Virus record (IMG/VR): IMGVR_UViG_3300005043_000148
Location: 1 to 34,654 of that record
DNA: 34,654 nt
From: a virus
Taxonomy: Duplodnaviria; Caudoviricetes
Strand: one strand, 5' to 3'
Part shown: one piece after another, positions 1,051 through 27,974 of the stretch
Numbering within the stretch: position 1 is the stretch's first letter
How the letters are laid out: the number at the start of each line of letters is the position of its first letter
Program-made: the position numbers and the translations under genes
Notes under the pieces: model-generated
Databases searched by the model: none
What the model was told of the DNA's origin: nothing
The model's input: only the letters and a program-made list of their open reading frames with translations

Positions 1051-1418
1051 TATGGTAGAACAACGGCAGCTTTTATTCACTTGAGTAAAAGAGGAAAGTC
1101 CGGGCTGCAGTGAGACAGGGTTCCATCTAACTGATGGCCGTGGTAACATGAGGGAAAGTGCAACAGAAAATGTACCGCCTAGTTCAAGACGTAAAAGTTT
1201 TTTAAATCTTTTACATCTTGAACTAGGTAAGGGTGAAAAGGTGGGGTAAGAGCCCACCAGTCCTTTCAGTAATGCTAGGAGCTTGAAAACCCAACCCGCA
1301 GCAAGAAGCAAATGGTTACAGTCTCACAATGTAATGCTTCGCTAGAGGTTTATAGTAATATAAACAGTAGATGAATTGTCGTTTAAAAACAGAACTCGGC
1401 TTAGTGTTCTGCCATACT
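1051..1418 (+). ncRNA. rnpB: RNase P RNA (bacterial type A)
   Basis: Conserved GAGGAAAGTCCGGGC, GGAAAGTGCAACAGAAA and ACAGAACTCGGCTTA. P1 pairs TATGGTAGAAC (1051-1061) with GTTCTGCCATA (1406-1416). TATAAT at 1040-1045. Confidence 0.97.
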
Positions 1419-1449
1419 CATTAAGAGCCTTGTTTTAGGGGCTTATTAA

Positions 1450-2547
1450 CTATCCTATTTTCGATTGTGACCGTGATGTGTCAGCAAATAGAGAAAAATT
1501 AGTTCCTAAATCAATGTTCTTAGTATTAATAATACTCGCATAATGTTCTAGAGTTACCTTCGGTGATGAATGTCCTAGCAGGCCCGCTAGTTCATTTAGA
1601 CTTACAATATTTTCCTTGAGCATTAGTGTTGCAAACGTATGACGGGTACAATACATTTTTCTTTTTGGAACTCTACTGTTTTTTAATATATTCAACCAAA
1701 AGACTCTAAGGCCTTGTGCATCATCTATCTCACCAAAGATAAATAACTGTTTTGGATCTTGAAACTTTTTAACTGCATCCAGTAAAAAAGGAGGATAAGG
1801 AACTTTTCTTATTGAGTTTTGTGTCTTTCCTGTTCCTAACATTCCTTTTGTCCTGGTACGTTTAATATGGATGAATCCATCGTCTTTAAAATCACCCATC
1901 TGTAGCCCCAAAATTTCACCTGTTCTCATTCCTGTGTTAAACGCAATCTTCAAGTAAGGGATCATCGGGCCTTTTGCAACTTCCATTATCTTTGCAACTT
2001 CTTCTCGTGTAAAGTATTCAACTTCTTTTCTTGGTTCAGGTTTCAACTTGATACCAAGAGCCGGGTTAAAGCTAATTACCCCATCATCCACTGCAAACTC
2101 AAATATCTCTTTCATGCAGCTCTTATAGGTACTTTTAGAACGAGAAAGCATTTTTAATGTGTTCAGGTATTGTTTACAGTCTAAACGGGTTATAGAGTCT
2201 ATGTCTTGACCTCTAAAATGTTCAATGACTCTCTTCCAGTACTCGACTTTAAGACCATAGGTTTTATTATGATCTTTGTGTTCTAAAAATATACGACCGT
2301 AATACTCGAAAGTCTTAGGTTTCTTTTTGTATATTTCACCGGTGGCTATTTTACTGTCTAGGGCAGGTACCATCTGTTGTGTAACTAGCTTGATGTTTTG
2401 CGGTGTGTTCTTGAGCTTAGTGCTCTTTCTTTTTCGCTTTCCATCAACATAGTAGTTGAGCCAGATGACATCGCCTCTTATAAAATGACTTGTCATGCCT
2501 TTTTTGTTACTCCTTTTTGAAGTAACAGTATCGCTATGCTTTGACAT
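1450..2547 (-). CDS. int: Tyrosine recombinase phage integrase
   Basis: N-terminal arm-binding WLNYYVDGKRKRKST; TGMRTGEILGL (R); YCTRHTFAT (Y-x-x-R in place of H-x-x-R); LLGHSSPKVTLEHYA (H, catalytic Y). Confidence 0.95.
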   Translation of the reverse strand: MSKHSDTVTSKRSNKKGMTSHFIRGDVIWLNYYVDGKRKRKSTKLKNTPQNIKLVTQQMVPALDSKIATGEIYKKKPKTFEYYGRIFLEHKDHNKTYGLKVEYWKRVIEHFRGQDIDSITRLDCKQYLNTLKMLSRSKSTYKSCMKEIFEFAVDDGVISFNPALGIKLKPEPRKEVEYFTREEVAKIMEVAKGPMIPYLKIAFNTGMRTGEILGLQMGDFKDDGFIHIKRTRTKGMLGTGKTQNSIRKVPYPPFLLDAVKKFQDPKQLFIFGEIDDAQGLRVFWLNILKNSRVPKRKMYCTRHTFATLMLKENIVSLNELAGLLGHSSPKVTLEHYASIINTKNIDLGTNFSLFADTSRSQSKIG

Positions 2548-2598
2548 AATAGCACCTTTGTTATGGGATAAATTTGGGGAATAGTCTGAAGAGGGGAA

Positions 2599-2817
2599 TT
2601 AAGAGATTAAAAAATCATCTAAATTGAAGGTGTTTGTAGGATCAGAAGAATGTTCTTTAAACATCTTAGAATTAAATTCTTCGGTATCTATAAAGATTCT
2701 ACTCATCCCTTGTAAGTAGTGTTTTGTGAGAACTCCAGCTTTGATGAGTTTGGTGATTGATGTTTCGTGAATACCAACATCTTCAGCTAGTTTTTGAATA
2801 GTGCAAAACTTACTCAT
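2599..2817 (-). CDS. xis: Excisionase-like HTH protein
   Basis: 72 aa winged-HTH pattern (TIQKLAEDVGIHETSITKLIKAGVL) directly upstream of int; AAGGAG RBS. Confidence 0.7.
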   Translation of the reverse strand: MSKFCTIQKLAEDVGIHETSITKLIKAGVLTKHYLQGMSRIFIDTEEFNSKMFKEHSSDPTNTFNLDDFLIS

Positions 2818-2880
2818 GGAGTCTCCTTTTGTTTAATAATTAATGTTTGATATAATGATAAAAATTTTATTCAGGATAAT

Positions 2881-3604
2881 ATGATGGAAAATGACAACCA
2901 TGCTTCAAGGCTTCATTCGATTTTAGAAAGTGGAATGTCAATTCCTAGAGGTTCAAACTGTAGAGATGCCTGGAGAAAATTATTAAATACAAAAGAAGAA
3001 GCATTGCTCATGTCCCGTTTAGGTAAGGTCATGGAATTGACAAGTCTAATTATTAAAGATGTTGAAAACAATCCTTCTGCATTAAAGAGTTCTAAGCATT
3101 GGAGTGCTCAAGTTACAAAAGCTTTTATGACTCAAAATTTAAATGATCAATGGTCAGGCTTTATTGCACATATAGATAGCCACTCTTTAAACTATCTTCA
3201 TATGACAGCAGATTTTATTCAGTCTAACTCTCATAAAGAAATTATTTCTGATTCAAAACTACAAGAAATAAGAGAACAAGTTGATGCTTTATATAAGGAA
3301 GTCCTTTCAAGTGAATTAGACGAAGGCATAAAAGAGTATCTTTATAGAACATTACAAAAACTATTAGTCTCAATAGATGAGTACTTTATAACAGGAGTAA
3401 ATCCCATTATAGATAGTGTAGATCAAGTAATAGGGCATATTGTTACCGATGAACCATTTAGAGTAGAATTAAAAAAAAGATGCAGTTGTGGGAAAAAGTA
3501 TTATTGATACTTTAGGAAATATTACTTTGGTAATCTCAATTGTAAAGGGTGGTCAAGAAGTGATTGAAGGATTTAGTAAATTAATAAAGTTGATATCTAA
3601 TTAG
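2881..3604 (+). CDS. Moron gene, helical protein, interrupted by a frameshift at an A8 tract (annotated ORF 2881-3507)
   Basis: Own TATAAT (2851-2856), opposite strand to its neighbours. The +1 frame after A8 (3471-3478) continues DAVVGKSIIDTLGNITLVISIVKGGQEVIEGFSKLIKLISN to TAG at 3602-3604. Confidence 0.65.
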
Positions 3605-3741
3605 AGTATAAGGAATATTTCTGTCTATTGCTATCCACGTTAATATGTGGTAGTAAGAAGCCACTTTGCTAGTTTTGTCCTTTACAATTGAAAAATATTT
3701 AGTTAAAATTGATGTCTGCAAAGATGGAAACATCTATGTGA

Positions 3742-3815
3742 CGGCGAGTAGCTCAGCTGGATAGAGTACGAATTTCATAAATTCGAGGTCGAGGGTTCGA
3801 GTCCCTCCTTGTAAT
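3742..3815 (+). tRNA. tRNA-Met/Ile2(CAT)-like gene with degenerate acceptor stem (possible pseudo-tRNA)
   Basis: D arm TAGCTCAGCTGGATAGAGT, anticodon arm CGAAT-TTCATAA-ATTCG, T arm GAGGG-TTCGAGT-CCCTC. Acceptor has only 5 of 7 pairs (2 G-U) and no CCA. Promoter TTTACA-N17-TAAAAT at 3681-3709. Confidence 0.75.
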
Positions 3816-3844
3816 ATCTGCACAATTTATTAAGATTATATTTT

Positions 3845-3967
3845 TCAATCACACCTCCTTGATTTTTCTTGTATCATTTCTTTTAACTCTTTATCTGTGT
3901 ACTCTTTTCCATCTATTAAAACCTTATCGGCTTGACCAACGGCTTTTCCTTTTAAAAATGCTGTCAT
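3845..3967 (-). CDS. Small phage early protein (40 aa)
   Basis: MTAFLKGKAVGQADKVLIDGKEY...; ATGA overlap with the upstream ORF; below the ORF-track cutoff. Confidence 0.6.
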   Translation of the reverse strand: MTAFLKGKAVGQADKVLIDGKEYTDKELKEMIQEKSRRCD

Positions 3968-4158
3968 ATCTTTTCTACCTCAAGACTTAGCCGCACATAA
4001 TCAAAAGGATCATCTTCTGTGTATTCATGCCCTTCAACAATAACCTGCGCCCAAGTGTCATCTTTTCCAAGAAGTGTGCAGCGGTTTGTGTAAGCACCTT
4101 CTTCAAAGATGAACTTGTCACCTGTTTTTAATGAGGATAATTTTACTAAGATAGACAT
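3964..4158 (-). CDS. Hypothetical phage early protein
   Basis: In leftward operon, AAGGA RBS. Confidence 0.7.
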   Translation of the reverse strand: MSILVKLSSLKTGDKFIFEEGAYTNRCTLLGKDDTWAQVIVEGHEYTEDDPFDYVRLSLEVEKI

Positions 4159-4547
4159 TTAGATCCTTTTGTTGGTTTTAAACTATTGAACACTTCTCTT
4201 GCGTTGAAAAGGTTATTTTCTGAGTAGGTTTTAATAGCGTCTGCTTTAGCCAGTGCTATTAATTCTATGAGCTGTGACTTTGTAATGTTTATGATCTGGT
4301 CATCATCTATCTCATTAAACTCTTTTTGGAGTTTTGTTTCATGGGACATGGGTAACTCCTTTTTATTAGGGAAAAGTTTTATTTTAGTCCAGTAGTTTTG
4401 AAGCTTTTGATTGTAGTAGGCGAGGGTGTTTGTCTTTGACATTCTTTTAGGAAGACCCTTATCAATCGATGTACAATTATTAAAATATTTAGTACTTTTA
4501 TAAAAACGATCTTTGTTCGAAAGCCATTGCTCACCGTGGGTTCTCAT
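4146..4547 (-). CDS. Hypothetical phage early protein (possible internal start MSHETK at 4349)
   Basis: In leftward operon; strong AAGGAG RBS precedes the internal ATG. Confidence 0.6.
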   Translation of the reverse strand: MRTHGEQWLSNKDRFYKSTKYFNNCTSIDKGLPKRMSKTNTLAYYNQKLQNYWTKIKLFPNKKELPMSHETKLQKEFNEIDDDQIINITKSQLIELIALAKADAIKTYSENNLFNAREVFNSLKPTKGSKCLS

Positions 4548-4550
4548 AAA

Positions 4551-4712
4551 TCATTTCTTTGGACGGTAAAAATCATCAATGACATAATCATCACGATGAA
4601 CATAATCATTTTTTTTACGTTTGTTATATCTGAGCATTACAAAGATTGATAAAGATATGACAATTACTAAGATGGCTAGGTAAGTTAAAAGGACTAAGGT
4701 TAGGTCTTGCAT
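4551..4712 (-). CDS. Small single-TM membrane protein (53 aa)
   Basis: MQDLTLVLLTYLAILVIVISLSIFVMLRYNKRKK...; AAGGA RBS; not in the ORF track. Confidence 0.65.
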   Translation of the reverse strand: MQDLTLVLLTYLAILVIVISLSIFVMLRYNKRKKNDYVHRDDYVIDDFYRPKK

Positions 4713-4829
4713 TTATTTCCTTTTAGAGTGTTGTGTATTTCACTGAGTCGACTCATGGCTTCTAGGAGTGTGATACCAGGGCTAATCTAATCATGTGTTT
4801 TAGGAGTTTGAATTGTAGGTTTGGGTTGT

Positions 4830-5051
4830 TCATGCTGAGACTACCAACATCGTTGATAAATGCTCTATGACTTCACGTTGATTATCTTCTTCATATAGAC
4901 AATATGTATAGTCGTATTTTTTTTCGTTCGCCCAACCATCTCGGTAAATAGTTATATCTAAGCTTTTAGTATGTCCTGCAAAATTGCACATAACATCGTG
5001 AGGTGTGTTTGTATTAACTAATATGCATAAGGCCATTATTTCGGTAAACAT
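4830..5051 (-). CDS. Hypothetical phage early protein
   Basis: AAGGA RBS, leftward operon. Confidence 0.7.
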   Translation of the reverse strand: MFTEIMALCILVNTNTPHDVMCNFAGHTKSLDITIYRDGWANEKKYDYTYCLYEEDNQREVIEHLSTMLVVSA

Positions 5052-5063
5052 GATGAGTCCTTC

Positions 5064-5135
5064 TTATAGAATTTTGTTGGCTAGGTTTTCTAGCAGGTCT
5101 TCGAATTTGGCCCATTTTGTTTTGATGTATCTCAA
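5064..5135 (-). CDS. Putative 23-aa peptide MRYIKTKWAKFEDLLENLANKIL
   Basis: TTGA start/stop overlap with the upstream gene; fills the intergenic gap. Confidence 0.4.
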   Translation of the reverse strand: MRYIKTKWAKFEDLLENLANKIL

Positions 5136-5689
5136 GAAAGTTCTTCAAAAGAATCTGTTATTGGCATCATGACAATAATTATGTTTTCATGTTCAATTAA
5201 GACCGGTGTACTTGTAGAAGTTATTCCAATGGTTCCATGACTTATATTTGGTACTCTTTTAGGCTCAATATGTACTTTATTAAAAGCCAAAATTCCTTCT
5301 ATCTGAGTTTGTTCTACAAATTCAATCTTGTTGATGACTTCTTTTGGAATAATTCGTTGAAAGTCTGGATAGTTAAAGGTTCTCTCTCCTAATAGACTTT
5401 CAATTGAGATGGTAATAATCTCTCTCTCGTATTCATCTAAACAAACTATTTTGTTTGGTTGTAAATCAAAGTATAAGGATTTTTTGTACTTGATGCTTAA
5501 GTCAACAATGCTTTTATGGATATAAAAATCCTTATCAGCGTGACCATGGTGTTTGATGACAGCAAGTGCTCTTGTATCAGTTGAGACAAGATGCTCTTTA
5601 TCAATATATAAATAATTTAATTCAAATTTAGGATTATTGGTATCAATGTATTTTGCTACAACTTGTAATTCTTTTTTACTTACGATCAT
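5132..5689 (-). CDS. Truncated DNA polymerase III beta-clamp-like protein
   Basis: LNYLYID..LVSTDTRALAVI and FNYPDFQRIIPK match the DnaN motifs (LNGV..VATDGHRL, G.FPDY.RVIP). About half of DnaN length. Confidence 0.7.
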   Translation of the reverse strand: MIVSKKELQVVAKYIDTNNPKFELNYLYIDKEHLVSTDTRALAVIKHHGHADKDFYIHKSIVDLSIKYKKSLYFDLQPNKIVCLDEYEREIITISIESLLGERTFNYPDFQRIIPKEVINKIEFVEQTQIEGILAFNKVHIEPKRVPNISHGTIGITSTSTPVLIEHENIIIVMMPITDSFEELS

Positions 5690-5860
5690 GTATGGTCCTT
5701 TGTTGGTTAAGTGTTTAATCAGAGTAAATATTTACTCTCAGGTAAAAACTATATAGTTGGTTGCCCTTGCCTTGGGAGAAAGGACAAGGGCATAAGTAAA
5801 TCTAAGGAGTAAAATGTTTTCTAAAGAAACATCGCTATGCGAACGACATGTCTTGTTTTA

Positions 5861-5941
5861 TGCACGAAACTGTGGGATTCGAACCCACGACCTTTGCACT
5901 TTGGGGAAATGAAAATGCTCTAACCGCTGAGCTAAGTTTCT
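5861..5941 (-). ncRNA. tRNA-like RNA with an enlarged 22-nt anticodon arm displaying CCCC
   Basis: Acceptor AGAAACT/AGTTTCG (6 bp), D arm GCTCAGCGGTTAGAGC, variable loop AGGTC, T arm GTGGG-TTCGAAT-CCCAC; 3' end T-GCA. Confidence 0.7.
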
Positions 5942-6027
5942 GTATTTACGGGGGAGGCCTTGTGTTATAATTCTGTTGCGTACAAAAAAGACAAAAGGAC
6001 TCCATAATAAATATTGGAGATGGAAGT

Positions 6028-6681
6028 ATGAGAATTAGAGATCAAAAAATAAAAGACGAAAAACAATGGATAGAAGGTTATGAACATAATCTTAGGTTAG
6101 CTTATGACTTAATGAAAGACGAATTAAAAACCTTACATTCGGATAAAGTTAATCAAGGAAATACTATTAAGCTTGTACTGTGGCTGAATATTATTTTTGT
6201 GGGTATTTCAATAAAAGTTTCTGAAGAGGGAAGTGATATATATCTTCTTGGAATATTTTCTTTGATTGCTTTCTTTAGTATTTTTGTTGCCTTTGTAGGC
6301 TTAATGATGGGTAGGTATAGTGCTTATGCCTCTATGCGAAGAGCATCTTCATTTTATAAGCTCAACAATGACAAGTGGATAAAGACACAAGGCCTTGAAA
6401 CTGCTACTCAAACTGTTCAAAAGGCTATTAGATACAACGGTCTAATTATTATTAAGCGTGCTAAGTTGATAAGAATTTCAATGTATATCACTCTTAGTTC
6501 TCTATTCATGCTTTTGATTTTAAGTGCGCACACAGTTTATATAAAACAAGGAAATGAAATGGCAGATAAACCAAGCAAACCAGCGGTTACAGTTGTGCAG
6601 AACCCAAGTATTAAAAGAGCTAACGATAGTGCTCCAAAAACACCAAAAGCTACACCCGAATCAAACTCTTCAAAGAAGTAA
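6028..6681 (+). CDS. Moron membrane protein (about 3 TM) with a disordered Pro/Lys-rich tail
   Basis: Extended -10 TGTTATAAT at 5963-5971; hydrophobic segments; opposite strand to its neighbours. Confidence 0.75.
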   Translation: MRIRDQKIKDEKQWIEGYEHNLRLAYDLMKDELKTLHSDKVNQGNTIKLVLWLNIIFVGISIKVSEEGSDIYLLGIFSLIAFFSIFVAFVGLMMGRYSAYASMRRASSFYKLNNDKWIKTQGLETATQTVQKAIRYNGLIIIKRAKLIRISMYITLSSLFMLLILSAHTVYIKQGNEMADKPSKPAVTVVQNPSIKRANDSAPKTPKATPESNSSKK

Positions 6682-6696
6682 GCCTCTTGGCTTACT
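6677..6696. terminator. Hairpin between convergent genes
   Basis: AGTAAGCC-TCTT-GGCTTACT. Confidence 0.5.
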
Positions 6697-6746
6697 CATC
6701 AAACAACCATACAGTCATTACGACTAAAAACCAAAAGAACCACCAA

Positions 6747-7142
6747 TCATCCATCTGGAGATTCTTTTTTTAAGATCCATTCAGCAGCTTTGAAAACACC
6801 TTCTAAATAATTATCTACAAGTCTAAATTTTATCAAACTGAAAATATTTTTTTCTGCAATCATAACAACACTGACTGAAAAGAAAAACTGTCCATCAGGT
6901 TTTTTACCAGAGTAGATAGAATATCCTTTATTGAATGCCCACTCTTTACACTTATTAGCTATTTCATAAGCATTTGCTCCGTCTTGGGTATAGCCAATGT
7001 GTTCTCCCTCCTCATTAAGTAACTTATAACTGATACAAATTACATTCTCGCTATAAGGTACGCCCTTAAGTTCTTTTATCTCTAAAAACTTTTTGCATTT
7101 AGACTGTGGGTACAGTTTAAATGCAAGTTCTTTGCTCATCAT
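6747..7142 (-). CDS. Hypothetical phage early protein
   Basis: ORF 6747-7184; the likely start is ATGATG at 7142 after an AAGGG RBS. Confidence 0.7.
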   Translation of the reverse strand: MMSKELAFKLYPQSKCKKFLEIKELKGVPYSENVICISYKLLNEEGEHIGYTQDGANAYEIANKCKEWAFNKGYSIYSGKKPDGQFFFSVSVVMIAEKNIFSLIKFRLVDNYLEGVFKAAEWILKKESPDG

Positions 7143-7388
7143 CTGATTCCCTTTTATGCTCTTAATACCGTGAAAACACGACACTATAAAACATTCAACT
7201 GTAAATTTATTCCAGCGTCCGTTGACGACACTTCATGCTTTGGCTCGATTGCTGCATGGAATTTTTAAAAACGATCCTCTTTTACCTGCCGAGGCTACCG
7301 CTGAAAATTTAAGGTACTTGTCGAAACTATCTCCAATGAGATTGAATCGAGCGTTGAGCTAGGCTCAATAGAAGTCTTTTTAAGAACT

Positions 7389-7664
7389 CTATGAAACTAG
7401 GTGTATGTTGTTTTGCTTGCAGTACTTTTTGAACCCGGGACAATTCTTTTCTAGATAAGTGAAGATTTTTTTGTCTAGGTTTGTACTTTGACCTTTTGGA
7501 TGCTTTTTGCTTACTCTTGTAAACTTGTTGTTTATGCGATTTGTCAATGAACCGATTGTTGTTTCAAGCAATTCGGCTGTGTTTTCTAAACTGTTTTGAT
7601 TCATAAGTAAAGAATTTTGTATGTTTTTGTAAAACGAAATCTCTTGATTAAATACCATGTACAC
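7389..7664 (-). CDS. Cro/Apl-like HTH regulator
   Basis: LENTAELLETTIGSLTNRIN HTH; first gene after the operator-overlapped leftward promoter; divergent from the repressor. Confidence 0.6.
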   Translation of the reverse strand: MYMVFNQEISFYKNIQNSLLMNQNSLENTAELLETTIGSLTNRINNKFTRVSKKHPKGQSTNLDKKIFTYLEKNCPGFKKYCKQNNIHLVS

Positions 7665-7691
7665 GAAACCTTATGTATAAAAAGTTTATTT

Positions 7692-7700
7692 TGTTATAAT
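7692..7700 (+). promoter_or_regulatory. Extended -10 promoter candidate for the repressor operon
   Basis: TGTTATAAT; a second TATAAT lies at 7758-7763. Confidence 0.5.
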
Positions 7701-7739
7701 CGTTATTGTTATTAGAACGCTAACGAAAATGATAAATGA

Positions 7740-7768
7740 ATTATATGCAATTATGCATATAATGTCAA
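7740..7768 (-). promoter_or_regulatory. Leftward early promoter with operator
   Basis: Perfect TTGACA-N17-TATAAT on the minus strand. Palindrome TTATATGCA-ATTA-TGCATATAA (7741-7762) overlaps the -10 and spacer. Further half-sites at 7773-7793. Confidence 0.85.
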
Positions 7769-7802
7769 GTGTTTATGCATAAAATATGCAAAAAGGGTTA
7801 TT

Positions 7803-8204
7803 TTGAATACGATAGGGTATAGATTTTCAATTGCTTTAGATGCCGTTTATGGGGCTAGCAGTACAAAAAAGTGTGTTTCAGATTTAGGAGTAAGCCAAAG
7901 TACTATAGATAGAGGAAAGCGTGGTGATAGTCTTACAAAAACAATTTCATTATTTGCTGCTAAAAATAATATATCAACTTCTTGGATACTTACTGGTTCA
8001 GGGGAAATGATGACCGATGAGCGGTCAATTAACCAAGTAATCACTGGTAATAGCAATAATCAAGCAGGAAGAAATGTTCACTCCGGTGCTAATGCTTCTT
8101 CTGATCCTATTGTCGCGGCAATAGAATCTTTACTGGGTGAGCTTGACGCTAATGAAAAGCTTCAAGTCCTCAGTTATATAACAAGTTTAAAAGTAAAAAA
8201 TTAG
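7803..8204 (+). CDS. CI-like phage repressor (HTH, N/Q/G motif, helical C-terminus; no S24 peptidase)
   Basis: LGVSQSTIDR HTH and ISTSWILTGSGEM signature; TTG start; adjacent to the operators. Confidence 0.8.
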   Translation: MNTIGYRFSIALDAVYGASSTKKCVSDLGVSQSTIDRGKRGDSLTKTISLFAAKNNISTSWILTGSGEMMTDERSINQVITGNSNNQAGRNVHSGANASSDPIVAAIESLLGELDANEKLQVLSYITSLKVKN

Positions 8205-10443: not shown

Positions 10444-10935
10444 TTAGTCTTCTACTAAGGCATAGGCCTTAGACTCTACCAGTATCTCATAGTTTATGAA
10501 GGGTGCTTCTTTTATCTCTACACTTAAAAGTCTAGGCTTTATCTTATCGTCTAGTTCTTTATATACCAATTCATCGGCTATCTCTGCTGCTACATAACCA
10601 AGTCTTCTTTTTCCTGTGGAGGACTTTCCATAGATGGCTATAGCATTGTCATCATGTTTGTTGTTTGGTTCTCTTTTAAATGACAGCTCTAGGTTCTCAC
10701 CTGTTGCCCATTTGACACAGGCATCCATTCTATAGGTTACACCTTGGATGAAAAAATCATCATCTTCATAAACTTCATACCCTTCTGGAATATCTATAAC
10801 TTTAAAAGCATCTTGTTTTTTAGTAAAAGCTTTATCGTTAGGTTGACTAGGCTTGTCTTCTTGTAAATACCCTTTGACTACATAATACAGTACCCAAAGT
10901 AAAAATCCATAAAATGGATAGGCATAAATACTCAT
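10444..10935 (-). CDS. Membrane-anchored HIRAN domain protein
   Basis: N-terminal TM; IQGVTYR..LSFKREPNNKHDDNAIAIY..LGYV HIRAN signature. Confidence 0.85.
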   Translation of the reverse strand: MSIYAYPFYGFLLWVLYYVVKGYLQEDKPSQPNDKAFTKKQDAFKVIDIPEGYEVYEDDDFFIQGVTYRMDACVKWATGENLELSFKREPNNKHDDNAIAIYGKSSTGKRRLGYVAAEIADELVYKELDDKIKPRLLSVEIKEAPFINYEILVESKAYALVED

Positions 10936-12426: not shown

Positions 12427-12632
12427 TGTTCTGTATCCTTTGGGGTATAGATAGTGGGTAACGATGGTGTCCGCCAAGACTAAGCCATCGATACTTTTCG
12501 CGCGTTGCACTAAGTACAAGCTTCATATTGTACCACAGTGCTTACAACTGTTATTGAAAAGGGTAGGATGCGTTGTTGGTCCTGGGCTTCCTTCCCCTTC
12601 CTTTTTCAATGATACCAAGACCAAGGTACACA

Positions 12633-24803: not shown

Positions 24804-25288
24804 TGAAGCTTTTACTTGATTATAAAATCGAAGTTCATATTAAAGAAGGGGACAAGTCAAAAGAAAAGTTGACTGTCTTCCTAAGAGAATTTAATCGTGT
24901 AGAGAAAAAAGAATTCACCTCTATTCAAAAAAAGTTTCGAAGTATTTTTACAAGAGCTCAAGAGATTAGTAAAAAACAAATTTCACTTGAGAAAAAAGCA
25001 GAGCTTTATCAATTAGCTAAACAGTTTGATATGGCCATCAAAACGATGGAAAAAATTGAAATTCTTGAAAAAGATGTTGAAAAGTTAAATCAAGAACTTT
25101 GTGAAATCGGTGGTGAAGATACTATGGAATTTGCAGAAGAAACTTCTAAAAAACGCTTTGAGTTATTAGTCAGTGGAGATGATAAAGAACGTCTTGCAGA
25201 GTATGCTGAGATCAAAGGGTATTCGAAAATAATGAGTGCTCTTGATAGCGAAAAGGTTGCTTTGGAAAAAAAGCACTCTGGAGAGTAA
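24803..25288 (+). CDS. Tail assembly chaperone (gpG analogue)
   Basis: Between the tube and TMP genes; ends in a slippery site. Confidence 0.75.
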   Translation: MKLLLDYKIEVHIKEGDKSKEKLTVFLREFNRVEKKEFTSIQKKFRSIFTRAQEISKKQISLEKKAELYQLAKQFDMAIKTMEKIEILEKDVEKLNQELCEIGGEDTMEFAEETSKKRFELLVSGDDKERLAEYAEIKGYSKIMSALDSEKVALEKKHSGE

Positions 25289-25599
25289 GCGAGTGCCTAC
25301 GTTCAGGCAAAGGATTTGAAGGCTTACAGTACTTTGAATTGTTTTTTCTTGACATAGCTGCTAGTTGCGAGTTTTCTTATGGCCCTTCAGGGGCAGTAGG
25401 TTACTTGTATGAGTCCGTTAAGGATCAGATGAAATGGCATAAGTTAAGTGTAAAGAAATATATCAAAGTGGTAATGGGAATAGGTCGGATTATGGTGCTT
25501 AGTAAAGAAGACTATATGAAGCAAAAAGTTGAAAATATAAAAACACCTGAGGTCGATATGGCAGGTGCTTTAAAAGCTGCATTTGGAGATGGTTCATGA
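25267..25599 (+). CDS. -1 frameshift extension of the tail chaperone (gpGT analogue)
   Basis: A AAA AAG at 25267-25273; the -1 frame ALWRVSECLRSGKG.. is continuous with ORF 25339-25599. Confidence 0.85.
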   Translation, partial: KKALWRVSECLRSGKGFEGLQYFELFFLDIAASCEFSYGPSGAVGYLYESVKDQMKWHKLSVKKYIKVVMGIGRIMVLSKEDYMKQKVENIKTPEVDMAGALKAAFGDGS

Positions 25600-27974
25600 G
25601 TTCAAAAATTGGTACAGTAAGTATAGATATCCTCGCAAATACAGCTAAGCTTGTTAAGGGTATGGACACTGCCGAGAGAAAAGTAGACCGTGTTATTGGA
25701 AACATGAAAAAGGTCATTCTTTCTCTTGGTACGGCTTATGTAGCTTTTGAAGTTGTGGACAAATCTATTGAGTCTTTTATTAAACTTGAAAACTCACAAA
25801 TTGGCGTGGCTAAAACTACAGGGCTTGTTGGATTTGAACTGGACCGTCTAAATGGTAGATTAAATGAAATGTCTGTGACCATGGCTGGTTTTGAGCTTGA
25901 AGGCATTTATGATATTGCAGAAGCTGCTGGTCAACTTGGAATCACAGGTGTTGATAATATCGCAGAGTTTACTCGCGTTATTGGTATGGTTGGACTTACT
26001 ACGGAACTAAGCTCTCAAGAATCTGCTACTTCATTTGCTAAACTTTCTAATTCTTTGAATGAACCTATAGAGAATATAGAAACTTTAGCAAGTGTAGCTA
26101 ACGAACTTTCTAATACAACAACCGCAAATGTGGGACAACTTCTTAAGTTTTCCCAACGCTTGACTGGTGGAGCAAAAACTGCTGGACTAATGACGGATGA
26201 AATCTTTGGTCTTTCAGCGACCATGATAGACCTGGCAATAAACTTTGAAACAGGTGGGACAAATATCAACAGAGTTATGCTTGATATTATCTCTGACTCT
26301 AACAAATTTGCAGAAGCGATAGGTGAAGACTCTGCTGCCTTTGCAAGTTCTGTTCAAAACGAACCTATCACTGCACTTCAAAAACTTTTACAGCATATGA
26401 ATGGTTTGAGTAAAACAGATGCGGCTAACTTTTTAACAGGCTTAGGATATACCGGAACAGAAGTGAAAGATGTTCTTTTAAAACTTTCTTCAAATACAGA
26501 ACTTTTAACAAGAAACTTAAAAATTTCACATGATGAGTATCTTGAGGGGACCTCTATTATGAAAGAATATGAAGTTTCATCCAAGTCTTTAGCTGCACAA
26601 CTTACTAAAAGTAGTGCAATGATAGAACTTGCATTTGCAAATTTTGGTTCAGCTCTTAAAGAACCAATCCTTGCTATGAGTGAATATTTTTTAGAGTACT
26701 CAGAACAAGTTAATTCATTTTTAATCCAATTTAAAAAGGTAGAAGACTTAAATATACAAAGAGATATTTCAATAAAACTTGCACAAGAATATCGTGATTT
26801 AAAAGAGCTAGAAGGAAAAAATACATTATTTTGGTTTAATAGTGACAAAGCTATTCATAATCAAAAGATACAAAATATCAAAGATGAAATTGAATTACTA
26901 GAAAAAAAGTCTAAAGAATTAGGAAAATCAAAAATAGATAAACCTAGTACAACCATTAATAAAGTGTCAGAAAATATCCCTAACCTCCCTGAATTTATAT
27001 CGGCTTACGATGAATATGGAATTCCAAATGAGGCAGAAGAACAACTTCAATCTTATACAAACTCTAGACTAGAAGCAAGTGCCAGAATGAACCAGGCTAG
27101 AGAGCAAGAACTTTCTCGTATCTTAGAACTTAATGATGCGATGATAGCTGCAACTGGTACGGATTATGATCAATGGTTAAATGAGACGAATAACCAGTTA
27201 ATGAACATTGCTGATAGTGGGGCTGATTCTGAACAAATTATGGAAGTTTATAATTCCTTGTTACAGCAAAAATCAGATGCATTACAAGAAGCATTTTTAT
27301 CAGAAGATGAATTGCTATTAATGCGAAACGAAGAACAAACTGAATTAGTACAAGAAGCATTTGAAAACCAGTTGATAACAGAAAGTGAGCGTAGAGATAG
27401 GTTGCTTCAATTAGAAGCATTTTACCAAAAGAATCTAACTAAGCTTAATGCAAAAGGTTTTACAGAACGACAAAAGTTTTCCGCGAAGACAGGTAAGGAC
27501 CAAGTCAAAGGTGTCTTAGGGGATATCCAAGCAACAACAGCTGGCGTAGCAAATGGTAATAAAACAATGTTCAATATAAATAAGGCCGCGGCACTAGCAA
27601 ACGCAGGGATTAGTATGTATGAAGGTGTTTCTAAAACACTAGGTGCTTTTCCTTACCCTATTGCCATTCCTTTAGCAGCACTTCACGCAGCGGCAGGCGC
27701 AATGCAGATAGCTCAAATTGCATCTTCATCTTATGGTGGAGGTGGATCAACTTCTGTACCTTCAATAACAGGTGGTTATTCAACTACTGAAGGAGTCGTT
27801 CCTAGTGATATAGGTAACAGCACTTCGTCTCAAGTTTCAGAACCACAAGAAGAGCAAAAGAACATAACTATCAATCTTAGTGATTCTTCAATCATGAGTA
27901 CAGATGCGGTTAGAGAATTAATAGAAGCCATTAACGAAGAACTTGGCGATGGCGCGAACTTGGTGGCCTCATGA
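25596..27974 (+). CDS. Tail tape measure protein (TP901-type core)
   Basis: IAEAAGQLGI..FT, helical 792 aa, typical position. Confidence 0.93.
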   Translation: MSSKIGTVSIDILANTAKLVKGMDTAERKVDRVIGNMKKVILSLGTAYVAFEVVDKSIESFIKLENSQIGVAKTTGLVGFELDRLNGRLNEMSVTMAGFELEGIYDIAEAAGQLGITGVDNIAEFTRVIGMVGLTTELSSQESATSFAKLSNSLNEPIENIETLASVANELSNTTTANVGQLLKFSQRLTGGAKTAGLMTDEIFGLSATMIDLAINFETGGTNINRVMLDIISDSNKFAEAIGEDSAAFASSVQNEPITALQKLLQHMNGLSKTDAANFLTGLGYTGTEVKDVLLKLSSNTELLTRNLKISHDEYLEGTSIMKEYEVSSKSLAAQLTKSSAMIELAFANFGSALKEPILAMSEYFLEYSEQVNSFLIQFKKVEDLNIQRDISIKLAQEYRDLKELEGKNTLFWFNSDKAIHNQKIQNIKDEIELLEKKSKELGKSKIDKPSTTINKVSENIPNLPEFISAYDEYGIPNEAEEQLQSYTNSRLEASARMNQAREQELSRILELNDAMIAATGTDYDQWLNETNNQLMNIADSGADSEQIMEVYNSLLQQKSDALQEAFLSEDELLLMRNEEQTELVQEAFENQLITESERRDRLLQLEAFYQKNLTKLNAKGFTERQKFSAKTGKDQVKGVLGDIQATTAGVANGNKTMFNINKAAALANAGISMYEGVSKTLGAFPYPIAIPLAALHAAAGAMQIAQIASSSYGGGGSTSVPSITGGYSTTEGVVPSDIGNSTSSQVSEPQEEQKNITINLSDSSIMSTDAVRELIEAINEELGDGANLVAS

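Follow-up and report, generated by a model that had tools for sequence, protein, structure and literature searches.

A phage tRNA scaffold with an enlarged, C-run anticodon arm in the early-left operon of a prophage at rnpB: a candidate shape-only element

Introduction

Phage tRNA genes are usually read as decoders, which supply codons or replace a cleaved host tRNA, and unusual ones are set aside as pseudogenes. The locus described herein raises the question of whether a tRNA-shaped sequence with an enlarged anticodon arm is such a pseudogene or might be retained for its shape. The window, i.e. the whole stretch of DNA analysed (34,654 nt; viral record IMGVR_UViG_3300005043_000148), carries a tRNA scaffold for which a sequence-only reading had offered four functions, namely an antisense RNA of the P4 CI and P1 C4 type, a processing signal in the early transcript, a decoy for anticodon nucleases and a +1 suppressor, and for which it had proposed selection on shape rather than decoding. 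In the present study, the scaffold was compared with related copies, and these functions, together with simple decay, were weighed.

Results

A tRNA scaffold with a 22-nt anticodon arm

Four distinct copies of the element were found, in the window and in the related loci L125, G029 and G044. The window copy lies on the minus strand, with tRNA position 1 at 5941, and comprises the following parts.

5864..5941, minus: tRNA scaffold from position 1 to discriminator U73 (Rfam RF00005, ARAGORN and parsing)
5935..5941, minus: 5' strand of the acceptor; A1 unpaired, pairs 2-7 Watson-Crick with 5866-5871
5917..5932, minus: D arm, same sequence as in the L125 copy; G18 G19 intact
5894..5915, minus: anticodon arm, 22 nt, not forming a stable stem in isolation; separated by 7 edits from the 20-nt L125 arm
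5903..5906, minus: C4 run at the exact centre of the arm, with 9 nt on either side; C6 run in L125
5872..5888, minus: T arm with an invariant loop; relative to the three other copies, pairs 50:64 and 51:63 show compensatory changes
5861..5865, minus: altered 3' end (G72, U73, GCA); C72, A73 and CC in the other three copies

The Rfam tRNA model (RF00005) scored the scaffold at 47.6 bits (E 2.4e-7; gathering score 29), and the scaffold is therefore more than a chance resemblance. Scoring by ARAGORN, proposed as a check in the sequence-only reading, also called 5864-5941, but the identity given was tRNA-Glu(TTC), which indicates that the window arm has no defined anticodon. The near-canonical acceptor, D and T arms described in that reading are all present on the minus strand: acceptor pairs 2-7 are Watson-Crick, the D arm has a 4-bp stem and an 8-nt loop, the T arm a 5-bp stem and a 7-nt loop, the variable loop has 5 nt, and the core of a functional tRNA (G18 G19, T loop, U8-A14, G15-C48) is in place. 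The 22-nt anticodon arm (5915-5894) with CCCC (5906-5903) was likewise confirmed, as were the A1:G72 mismatch and the U-GCA end; A1 lies opposite G72, followed by U73 and GCA, in place of a 7-bp acceptor with CCA. According to PMC7609411, the standard for a functional tRNA is a 17-nt anticodon arm with a 5-bp stem and a 7-nt loop. The window arm has 22 nt without a stable stem, and its loop would have 11 nt if open. In isolation, this arm has an MFE of 0 and a lowest listed structure of +1.1 kcal/mol, i.e. no stable fold, and for the whole element the forced cloverleaf ties with one alternative fold (both -18.3 kcal/mol). Positions 72-74 can pair weakly with the 5' leader (p 0.29-0.39). The 6266-nt contig of run X1 showed 0 differences from window positions 3400-7639, which argues against an assembly slip, although X1 may be the same source as the window DNA and thus not independent. 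Runs X2 and X3 also contain parts of this prophage, but no contig that spans the element, which carries no weight because contigs are lost to a filter.

Position in a prophage integrated at rnpB

The window represents a lambdoid-type prophage with genes for integrase, a CII-like protein, DnaB, terminase, portal, head, tail and lysis, and the element lies in the leftward early operon. The features surrounding it are listed below.

1052..1419, plus: host rnpB, full length; the last 29 nt are the attachment core
1450..2547, minus: tyrosine integrase of the prophage
5132..5689, minus: first gene downstream of the scaffold, 185 aa; weak PHROG matches to RusA-like and processivity-factor families
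5764..5790, minus: hairpin with a pyrimidine loop; L125 has a hairpin of another sequence in the corresponding position
5793..5810, minus: 18-nt linker, identical in L125
5817..5859, minus: dispersed host repeat, 43 nt, inserted immediately 3' of the scaffold; not present at this site in L125
5963..5971, plus: extended -10 box belonging to the divergent membrane-protein gene; adjacent to the scaffold on its upstream side and not a scaffold promoter
6028..6681, plus: divergent accessory membrane-protein gene, adjoining the scaffold in the window and G029, not in L125 or G044
7740..7768, minus: 12/12 sigma-70 consensus site, the putative promoter of the leftward operon, which would read through the scaffold

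Promoter-like sites numbered 21 in total, not above shuffles (21.8), and no minus-strand terminator-like site was seen in 2400-8000. The 29-nt core (1391-1419) recurs with 2 mismatches at C41:43683-43711 of the host genome G000. The integration at rnpB emphasized in the sequence-only reading is thus real, but the element is not linked to this site; such a link was rejected, as only one of seven other rnpB-adjacent loci carries the element. A link with the membrane-protein gene was also rejected, given the absence of this gene beside the L125 and G044 copies. In G044, the prophage genes run up to a tRNA-Arg(CCT) gene. The two copies of the attachment core differ at 2 positions, such that the RNase P RNA of the lysogen may carry a phage-supplied variant of its 3' end. 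Integrase relatives with titles were mostly from Sulfurimonas and other Campylobacterales genomes.

The 43-nt repeat starts 1-2 nt past the GCA end, and the matches of other repeat copies extend to 5861; hence, part of this GCA may be a junction. At up to 3 mismatches, 33 matches to the repeat were observed in its own genome (G000). The repeat (about 38-43 nt) is dispersed in many genomes of the family, sometimes in tandem, and sits in intergenic regions and at gene ends; the left operon of L125 holds an insertion at another place than beside its tRNA. The idea that the 43-nt motif is a C4-type partner was rejected on the basis of the 33 genome matches and this insertion elsewhere in L125. By eye, no tRNA-like sequence was seen in the 200 nt before other repeat copies.

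A second tRNA-like gene lies at 3742-3815 (plus strand), antisense to the leftward operon. This gene has a CAU anticodon and a canonical 17-nt arm, its pairs 1:72 and 2:71 are broken, CCA is absent, the Rfam score is 47.3 bits, and no counterpart was called in L125, G029 or G044.

Related copies and their distribution

The L125 copy (integrase 80%), found via the integrase and not via the tRNA, has a perfect acceptor, A73, CC, the D loop and linker as in the window, and a hairpin; its 20-nt anticodon arm contains a C6 run and forms a 6-bp stem with an 8-nt C-rich loop. G029, found via the upstream flank of the window element, has the rnpB site as in the window, an integrase with 76% identity and, in the corresponding slot, a UGU arm of canonical length (17 nt). 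G044, found by a search with L125 DNA, has a 17-nt UGU arm with one broken stem pair. A 7-bp acceptor with CC is present in L125, G029 and G044, and acceptor pairs 2-7 of the element match those of the CAU-, GUU- and other phage tRNAs found in 60 viral loci.

The element was observed in 3 of 21 integrase-related loci (L110 and L126, which are one sequence, and L125), most of the 21 having only int and xis in common with the window; a host tRNA-Ser was called in 2 of the rest, and 16 gave no ARAGORN call. Three of the 13 membrane-protein-gene loci carried the element (the window and, twice, G029). In L104 and L107 the same flank is present but has no tRNA, and the left operon of L189 also has no element. 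This patchy presence in related operons indicates an accessory element, which, as judged from these operons, is dispensable.

An exact-pattern scan for close copies of the window element yielded 0 matches in viral_contigs and 0 in metagenome_contigs. A looser family pattern gave 5 viral matches (two members already known and three unrelated canonical tRNAs) and 2 metagenome matches (the L125 sequence and an unrelated CAU tRNA), and a linker-pattern scan gave 2 (L125 and one without an adjoining tRNA). In the search of 353 family genomes with L125-element DNA, 7 matches were obtained, the members being G000, G029 and G044; one of the other four was inspected (L146) and is a host tRNA-Arg. The same search in 281 order genomes returned 23 matches and no new member, and all 15 arms parsed by pattern in 18 new order-genome loci had 17 nt. 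An annotated-phage search returned 22 records, none with 80% coverage. Enlarged-arm copies number two only in the material searched.

Pattern of change among the copies

Of the 56 positions outside the arm, 9 differ between the window and L125, and 8 of these represent four both-sides changes, of which 4:69, 50:64 and 51:63 stay paired and 1:72 does not. For at least three compensatory pairs, the probability is 0.0015 when all positions are counted and 0.017 when the count is restricted to stems; all three are double transitions. Since G029 and G044 show the L125 state at these pairs, the three changes arose on the branch of the window. Pair 3:70 is compensatory between the two subgroups of copies, and 63 of 63 stem cells across the four copies are paired when the 1:72 cell of the window is set aside as a gap. 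In a shuffle control, which ignores relatedness and concerns four sequences, 3 to 7 of 500 shuffles reached the observed values on four of five measures. The D-arm, connector, variable-loop and T-loop positions were unchanged between the window and L125 (31/31), and the flank identities were 73% (43/59) and 78% (98/125).

The two enlarged arms are 7 edits apart, a divergence at about the flank rate, and only about 0.1% of 20,000 shuffles were as close. The cheapest path through the enumerated canonical 17-nt arms, an enumeration of only two stem types, requires at least 11 edits, via a Gly(CCC)-type arm. The enlargement would therefore precede the split from L125, and selection would have acted on the core at a time when normal decoding by the arm was not possible. 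Four edits separate L125 from the closest canonical arm enumerated, and each falls within the arm (P about 0.003), although such lesion-placement figures are biased by detection, because a copy with a broken core would be missed. Thus, the proposed selection for shape rather than decoding was supported by comparison with the three related copies: the covariation sought across related prophages is found in the three compensatory stem pairs, and the homologues do not show random decay. The pattern of change among the copies is likely not one of random decay, and the window copy may still have decayed recently. The case for shape selection has to be read with the small number of enlarged-arm copies (two), the slippage of C runs and the detection bias towards intact cores in mind.

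The same data bear on an ordinary pseudogene, in which a canonical phage tRNA worked until recently in both lineages and then decayed. In its favour, A1 faces G72 in the window copy, CCA is missing, the arm is unstable and a repeat has been inserted at the 3' end; another damaged tRNA is present at 3742-3815, relatives have no tRNA in the slot, and canonical UGU copies exist in G029 and G044. In addition, the ARAGORN calls of the host, a draft genome, include no tRNA-Gly(CCC), and the nearest enumerated arm is of the Gly(CCC) type. However, decay would need at least 11 edits as opposed to 7, the edits are confined to the arm and the terminal pair, with 0 in the 31 unpaired or D-arm core positions, the acceptor, D arm and T arm of L125 are flawless, and the acceptors have no glycine identity. 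We consider simple decay rather unlikely, though a serious competitor; its account of the comparison, i.e. that the compensatory pairs were fixed while the gene was functional and that the C run slipped independently, appears similarly doubtful.

Antisense and decoding roles

The C4 and CI RNAs have complementary targets in the same operon, and no counterpart exists for the window element. A C4/CI-like antisense RNA, whose pyrimidine-rich loop would pair with phage mRNA, is nevertheless conceivable: as in P1/P7 C4 and P4 CI, the element is a phage RNA of an early operon and a plausible RNase P substrate, its C-rich loop and the downstream pyrimidine-rich linker could pair with ribosome-binding sites, the best duplexes (-24.0 and -21.4 kcal/mol) are each surpassed by 1 of 12 shuffled arms and so rank 2 of 13 in either phage, a weak though not zero signal, and a 15/16 complement to the L125 arm is found in G353. 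However, the longest exact complement in the window prophage is 10 nt, complements in the same transcript reach only 7 nt (window) and 9 nt (L125), and the best sites lie within the coding regions of different genes (terminase in the window and a tail-region gene in G353). No Rfam antisense family matched at E up to 1 in the window or at E up to 5 in the three related loci. The sequence-only reading had also noted that RNase P recognises the T/acceptor elbow and that it matures C4 and CI. Processing of C4 by RNase P is confirmed in PMC11143913, but neither CI nor C4 has a T-loop equivalent as described in PMC5499578, and they are consequently not elbow-type substrates. With no target clearly better than shuffles and none found in the same operon, the antisense proposal was not borne out and is very improbable.

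A comparable result was obtained for the proposed +1 suppressor, a non-standard decoder of G-run codons that would work in L125 and be degenerate in the window. In L125, the acceptor is perfect, A73 and CC are present, and the 6-bp stem carries a C-rich loop of 8 nt; the model invoked for this role, the CCCC suppressor sufD42, is reportedly from Salmonella. Like sufD42, the window element has four C residues at the centre of the arm. In PMC6103715, sufD42 is a CCCC suppressor tRNA-Gly and is placed in E. coli glyU. Unlike sufD42, a normal, chargeable tRNA-Gly with one extra base (a C), the window element carries five extra bases, its stem is broken and its acceptor is the wrong one. The sufD-type 8-nt loop with one extra C is absent in the window; in L125, a loop of 8 nt sits on a 6-bp stem and no U precedes the C run of this loop. 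Bacterial glycine identity comprises U73, G1-C72, C2-G71, G3-C70, C35 and C36 (PMC9976931, Table 1); only U73 is present in the window, and only G1-C72 is present in L125. The UGU copies have G2-C71, and the listed threonine identity has C2-G71. Moreover, in both phages the frameshift sites of the tail chaperone resemble -1 slippery heptamers rather than +1 sites at G runs. The GGG share of Gly codons is 15.8% in the phage vs 13.0% in the host, and codon usage makes no strong case for a GGG reader. The suppressor thus fails on loop size and glycine identity, and little probability can be assigned to it.

A decoy acting in trans

A further alternative is a trans-acting tRNA mimic, which would be excised, accumulate early and bind a host elbow-reading, tRNA-targeting defence protein, the enlarged arm resisting cleavage. 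The constraint pattern expected is the same as for a processing site in cis, the early-operon position is suitable, and the host has one OLD-like TOPRIM protein over the cut-off. P2-OLD destroys a UGU tRNA, which phage tRNAs replace (PMC12445682), and UGU is the anticodon carried by the sister copies. However, rescue in that paper came from replacement and not from competitive inhibition, the drift of the arm is about as fast as that of the flanks, and the element has no linked partner protein. This alternative is improbable, albeit less so than the antisense and suppressor roles. A broader version, to which we likewise give a low probability, is that a phage tRNA lineage has turned into non-decoding mimics, with one scaffold and exchangeable arms (UGU, C6, C4), the enlarged forms being trans decoys uncleavable by elbow-reading nucleases, e.g. 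the OLD-like protein of the host. No description of such an RNA counter-defence was found in the literature searched.

Other observations in the window and its relatives

Several further observations concern the prophage, its relatives and the host genome. A conserved non-coding element of about 120 nt follows the first leftward gene (window 7185-7320, minus strand) and is also present in L125 (2640-2775), L110 (3400-3535) and L144 (1240-1375); the window and L125 are 78% identical, RNAalifold gives 26 pairs, 6 with both-sides changes, and there is no Rfam match. It is a candidate antitermination or leader RNA. Another conserved non-coding stretch, with an inverted repeat, lies upstream of the helicase-loader/DnaB gene (window 12500-12630; L034 18171-18370; G353 about 26100-26300). 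The N-terminal 60 aa of 4146-4547 (minus strand) represent a small-protein family without a Pfam or PHROG match; matching sequences occur in 47 of the 353 family genomes, many of them lying outside prophages and some containing internal stops. The possibility that the many family matches of a 133-aa protein reflect a hidden RNA was rejected, as the DNA alignment is codon-like. The tail assembly chaperone genes (window 25270-25290; G353 about 13000) end in -1 slippery-type heptamers, and the second frame runs to the tape measure gene. The product of 10444-10935 (minus strand) is a HIRAN-domain protein with PADLOC PDC-M03B matches, a candidate defence gene. In G000, an OLD-like TOPRIM gene lies at C20:2045-2239, and another mobile element, at C20:147132-160000 after a tRNA-Met, has relaxase-like and ParA-like ORFs (by eye) and carries a homologue of the 73-aa gene of the window. 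In L115, a c-di-GMP-I riboswitch (4096-4173) is found within 6 kb of a related integrase.

Discussion

Herein, we propose, tentatively and with somewhat less than even confidence, that a former accessory tRNA has been retained for its shape alone, as a site in cis for RNase P processing or for stabilisation. First, substrate recognition by RNase P involves the acceptor and T helix together with the elbow. The parts of the core that are kept correspond to these determinants and the parts that are lost correspond to what is needed for charging, which favours a signal in cis. The window copy is more eroded than L125, having lost pair 1:72 and the CC end, and these are needed for aminoacylation and less for cleavage. 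Second, a leftward early transcript started at the 7768-7740 promoter would extend across the scaffold, and the RNase P of the host, in which rnpB is full length, might cut this transcript at the scaffold 5' end. The folded tRNA body would then cap and protect the downstream message, its paired 5' end shielding the downstream part from RNase J, for which the host has a profile match over the cut-off, and the cut might in this way matter for the downstream genes. Such a site is reminiscent of the pL transcript of lambda, which is processed by RNase III. Third, among the four functions first offered, the processing signal, still putative, is the one that survives without contrary evidence. Several observations nevertheless count against a site in cis. 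The lesions of the window copy (1:72, the 3' end and the repeat insertion) are of the decay type, the prophage contains the second damaged tRNA at 3742-3815, related left operons do without the element, and C runs are prone to slippage, so that two separate expansions would be less costly. In addition, bacterial RNase P also cuts simple hairpins (PMC5499578), and the whole elbow may thus not be needed.

The closest parallels to a processing site in cis are tRNA-like structures within longer transcripts, such as the mascRNA of MALAT1. The t-elements of plant mitochondria are cis signals for RNase P or RNase Z (PMC1920247). The window element resembles them in its conserved core, its free decoding arm, its proposed role as an RNase P cis signal and its location inside a longer transcript, which is predicted from the gene order and the promoter site. 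Unlike the window element, for which cleavage is predicted from sequence, t-elements and mascRNA belong to the eukaryotic organelle or nucleus, where cleavage has been mapped, and no RNase Z over the cut-off was found in the host, which leaves the analogy incomplete for 3' cutting. The element is also similar to the accessory or anti-defence tRNAs of temperate phages (PMC10264068, PMC12445682) in scaffold, early region and patchy presence, and two of its sister copies have canonical UGU arms. In contrast to accessory phage tRNAs, which decode, the window element has a 22-nt arm and neither a 1:72 pair nor CCA. With tRNA-dependent lysogeny (PMC10865867), it shares a temperate phage, a tyrosine integrase and a tRNA gene, but the target here is rnpB, which is restored in full on integration, and no host tRNA is lost. 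A relation to the YrlA Y RNA found no support, since Ro60 (TROVE, PF05731) was present in 0 of 1 genome (100% complete by markers) and there was no Rfam match.

In the literature searched, no description of natural phage tRNA genes with such enlarged arms was found; PMC10690425 reports tRNA-like viral candidates among 10,006 candidate viral RNAs, and its supplement may hold the family. What appears new in the present study is therefore a variant of phage accessory tRNA genes with a putative shape-only role, for which the comparative support is real but thin. If only decay has occurred, the element would be an ordinary pseudogene misannotated as tRNA-Glu. Otherwise, the natural series on one scaffold, from the UGU arms to two related C-run arms with covarying cores, would represent a test of tRNA-shape retention, and whether phages retain this shape for processing or for use as a decoy is the question on which the series bears.
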